IMG/VR virus record: IMGVR_UViG_2713896779_000027
Length of the DNA stretch: 4,011 nucleotides
DNA from: a virus
Lineage: Duplodnaviria; Heunggongvirae; Uroviricota; Caudoviricetes
Direction: 5' to 3' (one strand)
The translations under genes and the position numbers were made by a program. This document shows, one piece after another, positions 1 to 4,011 of this stretch; the first letter of the stretch is position 1, and every line of letters starts with the position of its first letter. Below the pieces are notes generated by a model. That model had not been told where the DNA came from and did not search any database. It was given only the letters and a program-made list of their open reading frames with translations.

Positions 1-185
1 GGCTGTTCCTGCTGAACGTTGTTATCAGCCACACGCCAGGTGTATACGCTTTTATCAACGAAGCCAGCCTTTTTCAGTTCCCACAGCTCGTTCAGTACTT
101 CTTCACGACTGATATCAAGTCGCGCAGCCAGCTCTACCGACGTGGCTTTTCCCATCGCTTTCAGTGCGTCAAAAACAGTCTCCAT
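1..185 (-). CDS. hypothetical small protein, 5' portion only (stop lies beyond the left edge); possibly winged-helix, weakly Ren-like
   Basis: ATG at 185..183 with GGGAGG (197..192) 6 nt upstream. Hand translation of the minus strand is open for 61 codons to position 1: [61 protein letters not shown]. Lies directly 3' of the P-like gene. Absent from the ORF track because the stop is outside the window. Confidence 0.55.
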
Positions 186-218: not shown

Positions 219-884
219 TCAAACAAAACCAGCCGCTTTCCGGCGTTCATATTCCTGTTTCAGCAACTCAATTGGCGTTGGCCCCGACGGGCGTTTGGGG
301 GCCGCCAGTTGTCGCCGGACTGGCGGAACGCTCAGGCCGTTACTAACATGCTTTGCCCATTTCGTCAGTTGCCGTTCTGCAAGCCGTTTTAATTCCCCTT
401 CGGTCATCTGGCGCTCAATCCCCTTTGAACGCATCTCGAGGCAAATGTGATACAGCACAGGCTGAGACCACGGGTACTTATCACTTCCGTCGTATCGCCA
501 GGACTCATTGCGCCAGCGGCGGTACTCCTCCATCACAGCATCCACCGTCAGACCGAATGGATTGGCTCCGCTTTTCGAAATCAGTGCCACAAACTCAGCC
601 AGGTCCGGAGGCCATGTTTCACCCGCCCGGCAGCGGTCCATGCACTGGCGGCAGACCTGCCGGATTTGCTGCTCAGTCATCGCGCCAATCTGTGCAATCC
701 AGAGCTTCGAAGGTGCGGCCCCGTTCTTCTGGGTCCAGCGGTTCGAATAAACCACCCCCATGAGTTCCCACAGCTTCCAGGCCGTTTCCGTCGCTGATAA
801 ATCCGTTTTCACGTTCCCACTGCTCACGTGCTGCCCGAATTTCCTGAACTGCCCGTGATGCGGTGCCACCTGGTGCTGCTGCAT
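219..884 (-). CDS. lambda P-like replication protein (helicase loader)
   Basis: 221-aa ORF. The C-terminal ~150 aa (from MTEQQIRQV...PDLAEFVALISK... through ...KYPWSQPVLYHICLEMR...ELKRLAERQL... to the end) aligns by eye with lambda P as I remember it (...GQFVAWCREEA...SYPWKSNAHYWLVTNLY...ELRRKAADEL...). AAGGGG sits 5 nt upstream of the ATG at 884. The start is uncertain: from 884 the gene overlaps the upstream O-like ORF by 212 nt; alternative in-frame ATGs are at 761 and 680, the latter giving an ATGACTGA start/stop junction with the O-like stop. Confidence 0.8.
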   Translation of the reverse strand: MQQHQVAPHHGQFRKFGQHVSSGNVKTDLSATETAWKLWELMGVVYSNRWTQKNGAAPSKLWIAQIGAMTEQQIRQVCRQCMDRCRAGETWPPDLAEFVALISKSGANPFGLTVDAVMEEYRRWRNESWRYDGSDKYPWSQPVLYHICLEMRSKGIERQMTEGELKRLAERQLTKWAKHVSNGLSVPPVRRQLAAPKRPSGPTPIELLKQEYERRKAAGFV

Positions 885-1713
885 GGTTTACCCCTTTGCT
901 GACTGGTTTAACCTGCGCCCTGACGTGATTTACGTGACGGGCGAATTTCTGCTCCCACTGAATCTGCGTAAACACTTTCCCCTCCGCTGCCCAGTAGTCC
1001 CGGAAGGCGGCAAGTTCAGCAGGTGTAAATTCTGTCTCCGGCAAAGCCATCCCCCACAACGCAGCCCGTCGTCGAAAATCCCGTGACGGATACCAGCTAT
1101 CGCTCATCGGGAATTTTCCGATGGGTTCGCTCAGGCCATACAGGAATACAGGGGGGGCTGCCTGTAACGACAAAACTTCCTGCTCACTGGTCGGAGCACT
1201 CTCGCGTGCGTTATGTGTGGGGTTTAGATCTTTGGGTTCCTTTGGGTTCCGTGATCCGTTTTTGGGTGTCTTTGATGGAAAATTTGGGTGTCTTTGGTTA
1301 TTTTCCATGCAGCTAAGAGTTCTGTTTTTGGGTCTGTTTTGTGCTGAAACATAACCATTTTCGGTACTGTTTTTATTAACAGCACCAATTTTACCCACCT
1401 TTAAAGACTCCCGTTTTTGGGTGTATTCAGGCTCGGCAACACTTTCTTCTACACCGATAAGTCGGTACACCACAATTTGCTTTGTTCTGCCTTTTCTCTC
1501 ACCGGTATCAACAATTAACCCAATCTCCATCAGGTGTCGTAAGCTGTCCTGCACAGTCTTTTTGTTCAGTTCCGTTACTTCTGCCAGTGCAGATACAGAC
1601 GGGTATGCACACAAATCGGCACCGCACATATCAGCAAGCCAGGTCAATACTGACTTACTGGATGAACTGCCGGTTTTCACCTTTTTAGCCCATCGTAGTG
1701 CATCGATACTCAT
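673..1713 (-). CDS. phage replication initiation protein, O-like in function (N-terminal HTH domain, iteron-bearing linker, C-terminal domain)
   Basis: Long minus-strand ORF (track: 673..1788). N-terminal region (...SVLTWLADMCGADLCAYPSVSALAEVTELNKKTVQDSLRHLMEIGLIVD...) matches the winged-HTH pattern of phage replication initiators. A Pro/Lys-rich linker (TPKNGSRNPKEPKDLNP) is encoded by the repeat array. Lies between the cII-position gene and the P-like gene. Start placed at the internal ATG 1713..1711 (MSIDALRW...), which has AGGGG 7 nt upstream and overlaps the upstream gene by only 29 nt; the 1788 start would overlap it by 104 nt. Confidence 0.8.
   Translation of the reverse strand: MSIDALRWAKKVKTGSSSSKSVLTWLADMCGADLCAYPSVSALAEVTELNKKTVQDSLRHLMEIGLIVDTGERKGRTKQIVVYRLIGVEESVAEPEYTQKRESLKVGKIGAVNKNSTENGYVSAQNRPKNRTLSCMENNQRHPNFPSKTPKNGSRNPKEPKDLNPTHNARESAPTSEQEVLSLQAAPPVFLYGLSEPIGKFPMSDSWYPSRDFRRRAALWGMALPETEFTPAELAAFRDYWAAEGKVFTQIQWEQKFARHVNHVRAQVKPVSKGVNHAAAPGGTASRAVQEIRAAREQWERENGFISDGNGLEAVGTHGGGLFEPLDPEERGRTFEALDCTDWRDD
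1231..1428. repeat. iteron-like direct repeats inside the O-like gene (candidate prophage replication origin)
   Basis: Six copies of a TTTGGGT core, starting at 1231, 1241, 1261, 1283, 1327 and 1416. Includes a perfect 10-bp tandem TTTGGGTTCC x2 (1231-1250) and a perfect 14-bp direct repeat TTTGGGTGTCTTTG (1261-1274 and 1283-1296). Spacings of 10, 20, 22, 44 and 89 bp are close to multiples of the helical repeat. An AT-richer stretch lies between 1340 and 1410. Lambda ori is likewise an iteron array within the O coding sequence. Confidence 0.6.
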
Positions 1714-2236
1714 ACGAACCCCTGGCAGACATTTGTTTATCTGCAAAGTAATATTGGTATTGCTGACGATACGCGTGCTTGAAAGCAATAGCTTTTTCTA
1801 TAAGCTCGTCAGTCTCACGTTCCACAACAACTGGATCCGCAAAAAGCAGCCCGGACTCCACCACATCGCCATATTCTTTGTTTAACCCGGCGATCATGTA
1901 CGTAATGCTTTTTCCGTCAGTAATTTCACAATACAATCTGAAATCGCTGATCCGGATAGCCTCCATAATTGCCGGAATCTGCGCCGTGAATTTGTCACGC
2001 TTATCTCTGGTGTCGATAGCTTTCCAGCGTTCGAATATCTTCACCCGGTTAACGCCCAGCGCCCGTTGATCAACCTCGCCATCATTAAACGTGACGCGTT
2101 GAACATCGATGTTCGGGCGTTCTTTCAGAGCCCAGAATGCTTCCGTGATTAATATCGTCGCCTGCTCCTGTGTCATTCCTGGTCGGCATACCCAGGTATC
2201 CAGAGCCTCACAAACCTGTTCAGTGGTGATTTTCAT
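1685..2236 (-). CDS. hypothetical early-operon protein in the cII position (possibly YdaT-like CII analogue)
   Basis: 183-aa ORF immediately downstream of the Cro-like gene (17-nt overlap) and upstream of the O-like gene. Translation looks protein-like with no low-complexity runs. The only start support is a weak GGGG about 10 nt upstream of the ATG at 2236. Function is assigned from position only; the family call is a tentative recollection. Confidence 0.6.
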   Translation of the reverse strand: MKITTEQVCEALDTWVCRPGMTQEQATILITEAFWALKERPNIDVQRVTFNDGEVDQRALGVNRVKIFERWKAIDTRDKRDKFTAQIPAIMEAIRISDFRLYCEITDGKSITYMIAGLNKEYGDVVESGLLFADPVVVERETDELIEKAIAFKHAYRQQYQYYFADKQMSARGSYEYRCTTMG

Positions 2237-2447
2237 TGTTCAACCGCCCCGCCCGCTTTGCCTTACGATATTCGTCATAAACTTTGGGGTCGTACTGAAG
2301 TTCCCCGCCGGATGCCTCTTGCAGGCGCATCGCGCGACCTTCAGGAACCAGTTCCCCCCATGCAGCAACGCTTGCCAGCCTAACTCCTGCGACATTGGCA
2401 AGCTTTGTTTTGCTGCCAAAAAACGCTATAGCATCAATTTTCAACAT
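2220..2447 (-). CDS. Cro-like transcriptional regulator (P22-Cro/DicC type)
   Basis: 75-aa ORF divergent from the repressor gene. The motif ...IDAIAFFGSKTKLANVAGVRLASVAAWGELVPEGRAMRLQEASGGELQY... matches the P22 Cro pattern (...VIDHFG...AVAKALGIS..AVSQW.EVIPEKDAYRLEIVTAGALKY...). AAGGGG sits 7 nt upstream of the ATG at 2447. A TTGACT/TAGTTT promoter with interleaved operators lies upstream. Confidence 0.85.
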   Translation of the reverse strand: MLKIDAIAFFGSKTKLANVAGVRLASVAAWGELVPEGRAMRLQEASGGELQYDPKVYDEYRKAKRAGRLNNENHH

Positions 2448-2523: not shown

Positions 2524-2931
2524 ATGAAAAACGAAACCTTCGGTGCTCGCCTCTTATACAGGCGAAAAAAATTAAAACTGTCTCAGGCCGCATTAGGTAA
2601 GCTGGTCAAAGTGGCTCACGTAACAATTTCTCAATGGGAAAGAGATGAAACACAGCCAGCGGGGAAGAGATTATTCGCACTGAGCCAGGCGCTTCAGTGC
2701 TCGCCGACTTGGCTTCTTTTTGGAGATGAAGATAAGCAACCAGGCGAACCGATCCCAGATAATCAGCCAGTCAATCTGACAGAAGATCAAAAAGAGTTGC
2801 TTCAACTGTTCGACGCACTGCCTGAGTCAGAGCAAAAGGCTCTGTTGTCAGAGATGCGTGCTCGAGTTGAGAATTTCAACAAACTTTTTGAAGAACTACT
2901 CAAAGCTCGCAAAAGAAGCGCAAATAAATAA
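2524..2931 (+). CDS. dicA: DicA-like HTH (XRE-family) prophage repressor, CI functional analogue without an S24 peptidase domain
   Basis: 135-aa ORF. N-terminal HTH (...LSQAALGKLVKVAHVTISQWERDETQP...) and a C-terminal segment (...LFALSQALQCSPTWLLFGDEDKQP...LPESEQ...EMRARVENFNKLFEELLKARKR...) closely resemble E. coli Qin DicA as I recall it (...LFALSKVLQCSPTWILFGDEDKQP...LPESEQ...EMRARVKNFNKLFEELLKARQR...). Divergent from the Cro-like gene and flanked by operator clusters. The symbol denotes a homologue, not necessarily the K-12 Qin locus. Confidence 0.9.
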   Translation: MKNETFGARLLYRRKKLKLSQAALGKLVKVAHVTISQWERDETQPAGKRLFALSQALQCSPTWLLFGDEDKQPGEPIPDNQPVNLTEDQKELLQLFDALPESEQKALLSEMRARVENFNKLFEELLKARKRSANK

Positions 2932-3138: not shown

Positions 3139-3290
3139 GTGGGCGAAGTCAAACATCAGAATGGAAGGCGTCCAGGGATCAGCAAAGAAACAGCGATGGC
3201 GCTTTATATTGATATCAGCGCCATTGCCGGACAGGTAAGAGTTATCAGAGCGGTAACTAAGCGGTATGCGCCTTTACTTCAGAAAGTCTC
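3139..3290 (+). CDS. hypothetical protein, N-terminal fragment interrupted by assembly gap
   Basis: GTG at 3139 with GAGGA (3127-3131) 7 nt upstream. Frame is open for 50 codons up to the N-run (VGEVKHQNGRRPGISKETAMALYIDISAIAGQVRVIRAVTKRYAPLLQKV). Contains AGG/AGA codons, typical of phage accessory genes. First ORF downstream of the candidate PL-like promoter. No recognisable family, so it may not be a real gene. Confidence 0.35.
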
Positions 3291-3340
3291 NNNNNNNNNN
3301 NNNNNNNNNNNNNNNNNNNNNNNNNNNNNNNNNNNNNNNN
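3291..3340. other. run of 50 N: assembly gap or masked sequence
   Basis: Fifty consecutive n characters, directly visible. True length and content are unknown, and the two flanks may not be contiguous. Confidence 0.99.
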
Positions 3341-3432
3341 ACCAATTTCCTCTCGAGTAACAGACCCCTCAGAGGATACCACCTCGCCTGACGTGGTTAA
3401 AAAGCAGGCAACGCTAACCACAAGGAGCCGAC

Positions 3433-3651: not shown

Positions 3652-4011
3652 CCTGAGTTTAACGGACACTCCTTCCTGAAATAGAATGGCATCAGAAGGA
3701 GCTAATAATGAGCAGAAAAACCCAACGTTACTCTAAAGAGTTCAAAGCCGAAGCTGTCAGAACGGTTCTTGAAAATCAACTTTCGATCAGTGAAGGCGCT
3801 TCCCGATTATCTCTTCCTGAAGGCACTTTAGGACAATGGGTTACCGCCGCCAGAAAAGGGCTCGGTACTCCTGGTTCCCGCACGGTGGCTGAACTGGAAT
3901 CTGAAATTCTGCAACTGCGTAAGGCGTTAAATGAAGCTCGCCTTGAGCGAGATATATTAAAAAAAGCAACAGCGTATTTTGCACAGGAGTCGCTGAAAAA
4001 TACGCGTTAAT
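3644..4011 (+). mobile_element. IS3-family insertion sequence, left end and orfA (element continues beyond the right edge)
   Basis: orfA-type transposase gene with the characteristic HTH N-terminus and leucine-zipper C-terminus, followed by an A7 run (3959-3965) typical of the IS3-family -1 frameshift site. The -1 frame stays open to the window end. Left terminus inferred at TGAGGTAGCC... (3644), with GGACAC at 3664-3669, by analogy with IS3-family inverted repeats that begin with TG. The boundary could instead be at the TGAG at 3654. Confidence 0.7.
3708..4010 (+). CDS. IS3-family transposase OrfA (IS600/IS911-like architecture)
   Basis: 100-aa ORF MSRKTQRYSKEFKAEAVRTVLENQLSISEGASRLSLPEGTLGQWV...LESEILQLRKALNEARLERDILKKATAYFAQESLKNTR. 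Same layout and C-terminal ...ILKKATA...SLN..R motif as IS911 OrfA from memory. AAGGAG (3695-3700) 7 nt upstream of the ATG. Slippery A-run just before the stop. Confidence 0.9.
   Translation: MSRKTQRYSKEFKAEAVRTVLENQLSISEGASRLSLPEGTLGQWVTAARKGLGTPGSRTVAELESEILQLRKALNEARLERDILKKATAYFAQESLKNTR

Follow-up and report, generated by a model that had tools for sequence, protein, structure and literature searches.

On the minus strand of the window (the whole 4,011-nt stretch of DNA analysed here, from an E. coli prophage), a single run of 212 bases supplies both the 3'-terminal 70 codons of a replication initiator gene and the 5'-terminal 70 codons of a helicase-loader gene. Comparative sequence analysis makes it very likely that this segment encodes two proteins, with the O-like initiator running to TGA 675..673, the loader P starting independently at ATG 884 and the constraint divided by frame. 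The initiator gene (673..1713, minus strand, 346 aa; the same 346-aa CDS is annotated by PGAP) comprises a putative HTH region (~1608..1513), a linker with probable iterons, a DnaT-type domain (1134..904) and a tail (885..676) that ends at the TGA. The long form of the lambda-P-family loader gene (219..884, minus strand, 221 aa) starts at ATG 884..882, and its frame, +1 relative to O, is open from one codon 5' of this ATG down to 219. The dual-coded segment (673..884, minus strand) contains O codons 277–346 plus the stop codon and P codons 1–70. A Shine-Dalgarno sequence AAGGGG (891..896, minus strand), read as Lys-Gly in the O frame, lies 6 nt 5' of ATG 884. At the other end of the overlap, in the junction ATGACTGA (673..680, minus strand), ATG 680..678, which is Met69 of P and the 'start' in RefSeq, overlaps the O stop codon. 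The sequence-only reading had described both ORFs, their 212-nt out-of-frame overlap, the ribosome-binding site and the stop/start junction, and all of these were recovered at exactly the positions it gave. To our knowledge, dsDNA phages seldom have conserved out-of-frame overlaps of 70 codons, and the literature searched contained neither an account of this O/P overlap nor proteomic or ribosome-profiling data on its protein termini.

On sequence comparison, the overlap arrangement has been kept over a range that reaches from E. coli to Vibrio phages. The comparison set consisted of ~25 diverged loci from 24 Enterobacterales species and several Vibrio phage clades, and the same geometry (an overlap of 200–224 nt with the same frame offset) was found in ~23 of 25 diverged loci and in the Vibrio phage clades. 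This overlapping O/P junction is present in 1310 of 5426 complete E. coli genomes. Relatives from viral contigs were only 93–100% identical and were used for polymorphism alone; the viral contigs gave no match when queried with P of the Vibrio phage D62. A homologue search with a 75-aa O tail returned partial fragments only, and an exhaustive HMMER search with the tail yielded ~15 real matches, all of them C-terminal, the rest being low-complexity noise in very long proteins. A sequencing error or frameshift as the origin of the long O frame was rejected, since other genera and more than 1200 E. coli genomes have the stop at an identical position.

Purifying selection was detected in both frames by NG86 dN/dS with bootstrap, polymorphism by codon phase and codon choice, and it is partitioned along the segment: in the sequences compared, constraint on the O frame prevails in the 5' half and constraint on the P frame in the 3' half, with the subordinate frame under detectable selection in each. 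In the 5' half, ovA (789..881, minus strand), P codons 2–32, a variable leader predicted to be disordered, lie over O codons ~278–308, and dN/dS is 0.7–0.9 in the P frame and 0.22–0.49 in the O frame. The 3' half, ovB (678..788, minus strand), carries P codons 33–69 with the conserved block TAWKLWELMGVVYSNRWTQKNGAAPSKLWIAQIGA over the final 38 O codons; here dN/dS of the P frame (0.08–0.09) is as tight as in the remaining P, and that of the O frame exceeds 1. P-synonymous change amounts to 0.36–0.55 of the non-overlap P level in ovA and to 0.65 (CI 0.36–0.98) in ovB, the latter reduction not being significant in the more saturated 'mid' set (0.86, CI 0.71–1.04). O-synonymous change in ovA reaches 0.68 of that in the DnaT domain (CI 0.54–0.84). 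P3 diversity across 74 haplotypes is 0.066 in ovB versus 0.159 outside the overlap (p=3e-4), and O3 diversity in ovA is 0.041 versus 0.139 (p=7e-3). RNA structure was rejected as the cause of the synonymous suppression (fold z-score +0.49). With P in frame +1, hardly any site is synonymous for both proteins. The sequence-only reading had held that conservation of a single frame across 673..884 would speak against dual coding; locally this is half the case, one frame prevailing in either half of the overlap, but the subordinate frame is constrained as well, as shown by the avoidance of stops, by codon choice and by lower diversity at wobble sites.

The O frame in ovB might still be a by-product of translation, with O read to 673, no sequence-specific role for its last ~38 residues, importance confined to the helix in the 5' half, and an end set by the first available stop. 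An O-frame dN/dS above 1 in ovB is what such passive read-through would give, as are the radical Arg/Trp swaps that follow P wobble changes and the low AF2 confidence for the distal tail. In Vibrio phage Baybae the O tail stops after 113 nt of overlap, beyond the helix, which means that not all of these phages need the distal tail. The O-tail motifs EER, LD and DW were largely rejected as direct proof of O function, being consequences of conserved P codons: EE-R/W comes from K53-N54, L/V/M-D from L61-W62-I63 and W/R from the Ile66 wobble, and the EERG motif (O 329–332; 718..729, minus strand) is read from P codons (Q52)K53-N54-G55(-A56). The evidence for the tail is therefore limited to stop avoidance, wobble suppression and codon choice. 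All 25 loci together contain no stop in the O frame, versus 2–3 expected if P alone were coding. Under synonymous resampling of P, the probability of an open O frame is 0.09 in the E. coli prophage and 0.03–0.12 in 25 relatives, and for openness through ovB over 13 lineages of less than 75% identity the product is 3.9e-9. Lys53 of P is encoded by AAG in 22 of 24 loci (11 of 13 independent lineages, p=8e-4), which places Glu rather than Lys in O, and Gly55 by GGG in 9 of 13 lineages (p=1.4e-3), which places Gly in O. Together with a P3 diversity in ovB of under half that of the remaining P, and with a tail that stays acidic and keeps its end point from E. coli to Vibrio phages, these observations make a purely passive distal tail unlikely.

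Protein P belongs to the lambda P family. It matches Pfam PF06992 over residues 52–188 (E 9.5e-17, 61.7 bits, cut-off 26), a domain carried by all P homologues, and the profile of the P alignment A2 matches lambda P in PDB 8v9t (E 4.2e-6), with profile positions 57–190 corresponding to lambda P 69–203. In this profile match W62 of P is aligned to lambda P residue ~70, inside domain II (domain limits from bioRxiv 10.1101/2022.12.30.522210). Residues 33–68 are among the best-conserved of the family, and W39, W50, K53, N54, G55, P58 and W62 are invariant in alignment A2. W62 is invariant even against the P proteins of phiV10 and TL-2011b, and the block 5' of it aligns with both. AF2 left residues 1–28 of P disordered (pLDDT <50) and began the fold at residue 29, with helices at 29–54 and 60–67, both upstream of Met69; residues 33–68 are thus predicted to form the first two helices, the first half of the equivalent of lambda P domain II. 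The first ~30 residues are probably a variable, disordered leader equivalent to the domain I 'lasso' of lambda P. Codons 2–32 contain indels among the homologues, and a leader of 30–40 residues before the conserved block is also present in lambda P and phiV10 P. In lambda P, deletion of residues 9–86 abolishes function (PMC3640518).

The comparison of start sites supports initiation of P at ATG 884, and hence true dual coding, over a start at 680. The xATG at this position is invariant in 25 of 25 loci, whereas the O residue encoded there varies between His, Asn and Asp (CAT/AAT/GAT, never xAC) and the following O codon always begins with G. It is preceded by a strong Shine-Dalgarno sequence in ~22 of 25 loci, with an anti-SD duplex of -7 to -12.6 kcal/mol at a spacing of 5–10 nt (-7.9 in the E. 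coli prophage, -10 to -12.6 in most relatives, which have GGAGG), against a background with a mean of -2.5 and 3% of positions at or below -8; the signal is weak in L007 (D62) and L109. P thus has an independent, conserved start inside the O ORF. Both frames are open beyond chance across the relatives, the P frame being weakly informative: given the O protein, it would be open by chance ~45% of the time, and its openness in ovA barely exceeds chance (product 0.045). Because the openness test is this weak, what supports P is homology together with the conserved ATG and its Shine-Dalgarno sequence. With codons 2–32 near-neutral as well, the 884 start in particular rests on ATG/SD conservation and the domain layout of the family. 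The first of the two options left by the sequence-only reading, P from 884 behind AAGGGG with ~70 dual-coded codons, draws its support from this conservation and from residues 33–68.

A shorter overlap would result if P were initiated at an internal leader codon or at Met42 (761), leaving ~89–150 nt dual-coded and the ATG and Shine-Dalgarno sequence at 884 retained for the sake of a Gly-Gly linker in O. The near-neutral dN/dS and the indels of codons 2–32 are compatible with this, as is the lack of confident structure for residues 1–28. Many gene callers choose a product of ~180 aa, and Met42 is nearly invariant in the enteric homologues. We regard such a start as quite unlikely, since Met42 is missing in Vibrio phages and mostly has a duplex energy of only -4 to -6, far weaker than that at 884, and since the ATG at 884 is conserved as nucleotides and not as an O residue. 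Moreover, the conserved block and its predicted helix begin at residues 29–33, upstream of Met42, lambda P and phiV10 P have leaders of similar length, and O-synonymous sites are suppressed in ovA.

The other option of the sequence-only reading was a coupling junction, in which P would be made from ATG 680 in ATGACTGA by termination-reinitiation and the upstream P frame would be open by chance and untranslated. A start at 680 is annotated by PGAP and in two GenBank phage records, O/P pairs such as that of phiV10 typically have ATGA-type junctions, and the chance of an open P frame is considerable. This option failed the comparative tests and is very improbable. Met69 is replaced by Leu in many homologues, and the junction ATG is present only in the closer enteric relatives, being absent in L113, L105–L110, L114 and the Vibrio phages, so that it does not constitute a conserved downstream start of a translationally coupled pair. 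It has no Shine-Dalgarno sequence (-3.1 kcal/mol in every locus having the junction ATG). Upstream of it, P codons 33–69 show the low dN/dS and the seven invariant residues described above, and the Pfam match already starts at residue 52. With Met69 as the N-terminus, both N-terminal helices would be lost, and with them half of the domain II equivalent.

The public records of P differ accordingly in length, with four versions of 140, 153, ~180 and 221 aa. RefSeq/PGAP gives 153 aa from start 680 (three E. coli genomes) and GenBank 140 aa; both are probably N-terminally truncated, because ATG 680 would be an internal methionine. The 153-aa product would lack half of a conserved folded domain, and cloning or modelling of 'replication protein P' from such records would yield a truncated protein. 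The overlapping O/P junction concerned occurs in about one quarter of the complete E. coli genomes, in many other Enterobacterales and in Vibrio phages.

A programmed +1 frameshift that makes an O-P fusion, instead of or besides independent initiation of P, is extremely improbable: P is always +1 relative to O and an SD-like element lies just upstream in the O frame, superficially recalling the prfB frameshift site, but the site has no in-frame stop and no slippery or hungry codon, its invariant feature is an ATG at the canonical ~5–10 nt from the Shine-Dalgarno sequence, and in many loci the P frame is closed one codon 5' of the ATG, which fits a start and not a shift window.

The initiator itself is 'O-like' by position only, since it gave no match to Phage_rep_O (PF04492). 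It contains a DnaT C-terminal domain (Pfam PF17948, E 9e-17, 61 bits, cut-off 25), and residues 194–270 match that of PDB 6aep (E 1.7e-19) and positions 82–166 of NCBIfam PRK02854, i.e. the C-terminal ssDNA-binding domain of E. coli DnaT. In contrast to E. coli DnaT, the whole protein scores only 93 in NCBIfam, far below the cut-off of 201, and E. coli DnaT has no counterpart to the putative N-terminal HTH (HTH_36, 20.9 bits, below the cut-off of 25 bits) or to the 70-aa tail. Direct repeats within the gene, three copies of TTTGGGTGTCTTTG and three CCGTTTTTGGGTGT-like copies, are probable origin iterons judging from their sequence. The last 70 residues are predicted to consist of a disordered linker, one conserved helix SRAVQEIRAAREQWER (O residues 287–302; 808..855, minus strand) and an acidic, weakly structured end (EERG...LD..DW..DD). 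AF2 placed the helix at fragment residues 98–113 with a pLDDT of ~70 and low-confidence flanks, and the alignments keep it even where the O body is unrelated.

This tail behaves as a portable module, its limit of homology coinciding with the start of P. It is joined to at least five different initiator bodies (DUF1376+DnaT, DnaT-only, Phage_rep_O, HTH_36/DnaD_N and DUF1376-only), in every case co-encoded with the 5' end of P. Homology of TL-2011b to O ends at residue 273 and tail homology of Vibrio D62 begins at 275, the P ATG lying in O codon 277. L105, a relative with the same tail, does carry Phage_rep_O. Modules of the phiV10, TL-2011b and epsilon15 type likewise have a DnaT-domain initiator followed by a lambda-P-family loader, and the DnaT domain of TL-2011b is 71–81% identical to that of the prophage O, but their homology to O stops 4 codons before its P start. 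The initiators of phiV10 and TL-2011b have a different short acidic/aromatic tail, and the overlap between initiator gene and P gene amounts to 4 nt (ATGA) and 29 nt in these phages, respectively, as opposed to 212 nt here. The paper on the replication modules of Stx-phage 'Eru' does not cover a module of the type seen in the prophage.

The locus resembles lambda in gene order and operon context (repressor / cro / ... / initiator / loader), in the family of its P (Pfam and profile match) and in the probable origin iterons inside the initiator gene. The lambda O and P genes share no more than a few bases at the stop/start, as opposed to 70 codons here. Both initiators combine an N-terminal DNA-binding part, putative in the prophage O, with a C-terminal part, which in lambda contacts P; a construct of lambda O residues 156–299 was used with the DnaB-P complex (bioRxiv 10.1101/2022.12.30.522210). 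In our case the initiator consists of putative HTH, DnaT domain and tail instead of Phage_rep_O, and the C-terminal element is a short one-helix tail and not a folded domain. From the modularity of the tail and the analogy with lambda, we infer that it may be a loader-docking element.

In the preferred reading, that of two independently translated proteins, O would be translated through to TGA 675..673 and thereby acquire its 70-residue tail, and P would initiate separately at ATG 884 from its own Shine-Dalgarno sequence inside the O frame; O-translating ribosomes that pass the P start may link P synthesis to that of O. Tail and P would form a unit of exchange in mosaic recombination, and the overlap would physically lock the putative docking element of the initiator to its matching loader. 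More tentatively, it is possible that the O tail (helix 287–302 and acidic end) and the leader/domain II of P bind each other, and that the overlap evolved as a genetic lock on this interface. A recombinant gaining P would then gain the matching docking tail on any initiator body upstream, which would explain one tail on at least five unrelated initiator families and would give long overlaps a distinct reason, the co-inheritance of an interface, as opposed to genome compression or de novo gene birth. Since the overlap lies on a recombination-module boundary and joins cooperating proteins, the idea of co-inheritance by overlap can be put to a direct test, with point mutations silent in P or in O allowing a clean separation of the frames.

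Overprinted out-of-frame gene pairs are known from other viruses, e.g. A/B/K and D/E of phiX174 and Rz/Rz1 of lambda (reviewed in PMC8227390). The O/P overlap shares with them two frames on one DNA, asymmetric constraint, suppressed synonymous variation and disordered or low-complexity segments. In contrast to these pairs, it joins two adjacent, functionally coupled genes tail to head instead of nesting a small gene in a larger one, it belongs to a module of a dsDNA temperate phage and lies at the boundary of a recombination module, and neither of its products is an orphan.

The O-like replication initiator gene (1713..673, minus strand; 346 aa) and the lambda-P-family helicase-loader gene P (884..219, minus strand) overlap by 212 nt, with the P frame being the O frame +1. 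In the ORF map, the P-frame ATG (884..882), the AAGGGG preceding it (896..891), the O frame running to 673 and the out-of-frame overlap matched exactly the geometry described in the sequence-only reading. The O stop codon TGA (675..673) is part of the ATGACTGA junction at 680..673. Both genes belong to a lambdoid early-right operon on the minus strand, which also includes a Cro-like gene (2447..2220), a YdaT-like gene (2236..1685) and, after P, a gene annotated as DUF1627 in RefSeq whose N-terminal 61 aa lie within the window (1-185). A DicA/CI-type repressor (2524..2931) is encoded divergently on the plus strand. In the O protein, HTH_36 is matched below threshold, residues 194-270 clearly form a domain of the DnaT C-terminal type (Pfam 9e-17; PDB DnaT E 1.7e-19), and no family match was found for the ~75 residues that follow. 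It is thus an initiator of the DnaT-domain type and does not belong to Phage_rep_O, for which it was tested. P displays the membership features of the lambda-P-family loaders and matches PF06992 from residue 52 of its long form on.

The main comparative set comprised loci from 24 species-level Enterobacterales genomes (P identity 46-92%), to which the phages Chris1, Kp4865-4, Rac-SA53 and pPE4 and five Vibrio phages from four clades were added; polymorphism was sampled in 80 close viral contigs. The phages phiV10 and TL-2011b were taken as outgroups since, in contrast to the 212 nt of the window, their P and initiator genes overlap by only 4 and 29 nt, respectively. The O-frame ORF of virtually all intact loci ended 200-224 nt past the P-frame ATG, with an identical frame offset. 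The overlap measured 191-212 nt in the Vibrio phages and 113 nt in Baybae (L118, 1486-1598), where the O tail ends just past its helix motif. The P frame is broken in Leclercia (L111), probably by a frameshift or as a pseudogene, a Symbiopectobacterium endosymbiont (L115) holds a degraded copy, and the P homologue of Erwinia (L112) is not entered by a long upstream ORF; these exceptions appear decayed or differently organised.

Two starts had been considered for P, the ATG at 884, yielding a protein of 221 aa and a dual-coding overlap, and the junction ATG at 680 (Met69 of the long form), which would couple P to the O stop and from which a 153-aa P is called in Rac-SA53, phage pPE4 and RefSeq/PGAP. 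We consider the start at 884, and with it true dual coding, likely. The equivalent ATG was invariant (25/25 loci), and in about 22 of the 25 a GGAGG/AGGGGG Shine-Dalgarno (SD) sequence is located 5-10 nt 5' of it, with energies of -7 to -12.6 kcal/mol against a background mean of -2.5, -8 being reached at only 3% of positions. The O codon holding this ATG was CAT, AAT or GAT (His, Asn or Asp) and never the synonymous xAC in the 25 loci, while the next O codon always began with G and encoded Ala, Val, Glu or Gly; conservation at this site resides in the nucleotides rather than in the O residues. P residues 33-68 (TAWKLWELMGVVYSNRWTQKNGAAPSKLWIAQIGA) belong to the most conserved of the family and include a W62 that is invariant also in the P proteins of phiV10 and TL-2011b and is placed by the family profile at lambda P residue ~70. 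Lambda P has a disordered lasso (domain I, 1 to ~29) and a compact domain II (~30-119) (bioRxiv 10.1101/2022.12.30.522210), and removal of residues 9-86 abolished its function (PMC3640518). The domain layout of long-form P likewise supports the 884 start, with residues 1-28 at pLDDT <50 in the AF2 model and helices at 29-54, 60-67 and 71-86. A start at 680 would cost two helices of the conserved domain and is very improbable: the SD energy was -3.1 wherever the junction ATG was present, this ATG is missing from more distant relatives, and Met69 is replaced by Leu in many homologues. A start at Met42, with SD energies mostly of -4 to -6, would remove part of the first helix; this residue is not conserved among the Vibrio phages.

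The O frame was tested by resampling the synonymous codons of P with the codon usage of the same genes. P-only coding predicted 2-3 O-frame stops and a probability of an open frame of 0.03-0.12 per locus; stops were absent from 25/25 loci. Restricted to the 3' half of the overlap (P codons 33-69), since the P protein sequence is certainly under selection there, the test gave probabilities of 0.08-0.43 per lineage and a product of 3.9e-9 (13 lineages, <75% P identity). The O tail is alignable from the P start codon on, even between unrelated O bodies. AF2 modelling of O 190-346 returned a confident DnaT domain, a disordered linker holding the P SD and ATG, a single helix (O 287-302, SRAVQEIRAAREQWER, pLDDT ~70) and a low-confidence acidic end. 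Within the last 38 O residues, conserved P codons account for much of the motif conservation that can be seen: EE-R/W stems from P Lys53-Asn54, L/V/M-Asp from Leu61-Trp62-Ile63 and Trp/Arg from the Ile66 wobble. As the distal tail also tolerates radical Arg/Trp swaps and the Baybae tail is short, it is for the proximal, helix-bearing part that a functional role is well supported. Constraint on the distal acidic part is weaker, mainly compositional and by stop avoidance.

Selection was partitioned between the frames. In the 5' half of the overlap (P codons 2-32), dN/dS in the close and mid sets was 0.71 and 0.88 in the P frame and 0.22 and 0.49 in the O frame; in the 3' half, the values were 0.095 and 0.084 for P and 1.2 and 2.3 for O. 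Non-overlapping P (0.07-0.15) and the O DnaT domain (0.13-0.14) provided the levels outside the overlap in both sets. Hence, O dominates the 5' half and P the 3' half. The subordinate frame is still constrained in each half. Relative to non-overlapping P, P-synonymous change amounted to 0.36 (close set) and 0.55 (mid set) in the 5' half, and to 0.65 (CI 0.36-0.98, close set) and 0.86 (CI 0.71-1.04, mid set, saturating) in the 3' half; O-synonymous change in the 5' half was 0.68 of the DnaT-domain level (CI 0.54-0.84). Among 74 E. coli-level haplotypes, third-position diversity was reduced for P in the 3' half (0.066 vs 0.159 elsewhere in P, p=3e-4) and for O in the 5' half (0.041 vs 0.139 upstream, p=7e-3), and total diversity had its trough at 885..615, extending ~60 nt past the overlap into the conserved core of P. 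The invariant P Lys53 is encoded by AAG, which gives Glu in O where AAA would give Lys, in 11/13 independent lineages, against an AAG share of 38% among the other Lys codons of P (p=8e-4). P Gly55 favours GGG (9/13 lineages, p=1.4e-3), which encodes Gly in O. RNA structure was ruled out as the source of the synonymous suppression (fold z = +0.49).

The tail is attached to initiator bodies of diverse composition: HTH_36 with DnaT (window), DUF1376 with DnaT (Rac-SA53), DnaT with other N-termini (Chris1, Kp4865-4), a genuine Phage_rep_O (L105), HTH_36/DnaD_N without DnaT (L106, Vibrio D62), DUF1376 without DnaT (L107) and bodies without a Pfam match (L110, L114, L117). Pairwise homology limits coincided with the P start, whose ATG sits in O codon 277. 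The O of TL-2011b shares residues 157-273 with that of the window at 71% identity and diverges afterwards, and Vibrio D62 has only residues 1-67 (HTH) and 275-343 (tail) in common with it. In an exhaustive search, the tail formed the extreme C-terminus of every match. Together, these boundaries and the constant C-terminal position indicate that tail and P act as one exchange unit.

Viruses are well known to have long out-of-frame overlaps with asymmetric constraint (see, for example, the review PMC8227390). The distinctive feature is a 70-codon tail-to-head overlap of two cooperating replication genes, which, moreover, is kept from enteric prophages to Vibrio phages and coincides with a mosaic module boundary. 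No description of this O/P overlap was found in the literature searched. In lambda, the C-terminal part of O contacts P. A construct of lambda O 156-299 was used with DnaB-P (bioRxiv 10.1101/2022.12.30.522210). By analogy, a docking of the O tail on the loader, with the overlap enforcing co-inheritance, is plausible, albeit short of probable. The initiator would bind candidate iterons, probably inside its own gene, and a recombinant gaining this P would also gain the matching O tail, encoded within the P gene. Ribosomes on the O tail would cross the P SD and ATG, possibly linking the expression levels of O and P. Within the O gene, the linker that joins the HTH to the DnaT domain carries a threefold direct repeat TTTGGGTGTCTTTG (1231, 1261, 1283) and three copies of a 24-nt unit containing CCGTTTTTGGGTGT (1249, 1315, 1404). 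Similarly placed to the iterons inside the lambda initiator gene, these repeats (1231-1427) look like origin iterons.

Public annotation sidesteps the overlap, the junction sequence of which occurs in 1310/5426 complete E. coli genomes. P is called at 140 aa in PPompW/Stx2a phage records 99.9% identical to the window and at 136 aa in the Chris1 record, and the same gene appears in the protein collection at ~221-223, ~180, 153 and 140 aa, lengths that depend on the gene caller. Three entries (P0026, P0079 and P0107) are fused to neighbouring domains, which suggests frameshifted assemblies. In practice, reference annotation probably truncates P systematically at its N-terminus.

Overlapping gene junctions seem to be a general rule in this operon module. 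The Cro-like and YdaT-like genes share 17 nt out of frame (2220-2236, minus strand), and the YdaT-like and O-like genes 29 nt (1685-1713, minus strand), the latter being annotated by PGAP as well. The DUF1627 gene begins 34 nt past the P stop, its product has weak winged-helix/HTH-type matches, and it adjoins P in Rac-SA53, pPE4 and E. coli genomes as well. Between the repressor gene and an IS element lies a run of 50 N (3291-3340; masked or unresolved), and ORF calls spanning it (3139..3360 among them) cannot be interpreted. On the plus strand, an ORF of 100 aa (3708-4010) has its match in the N-terminal region of IS3-family transposases (NCBIfam NF033516, E 6.6e-13); it is complete with its TAA stop at 4008-4010 and is probably an IS3-family orfA, the remainder of the element lying past the window end.
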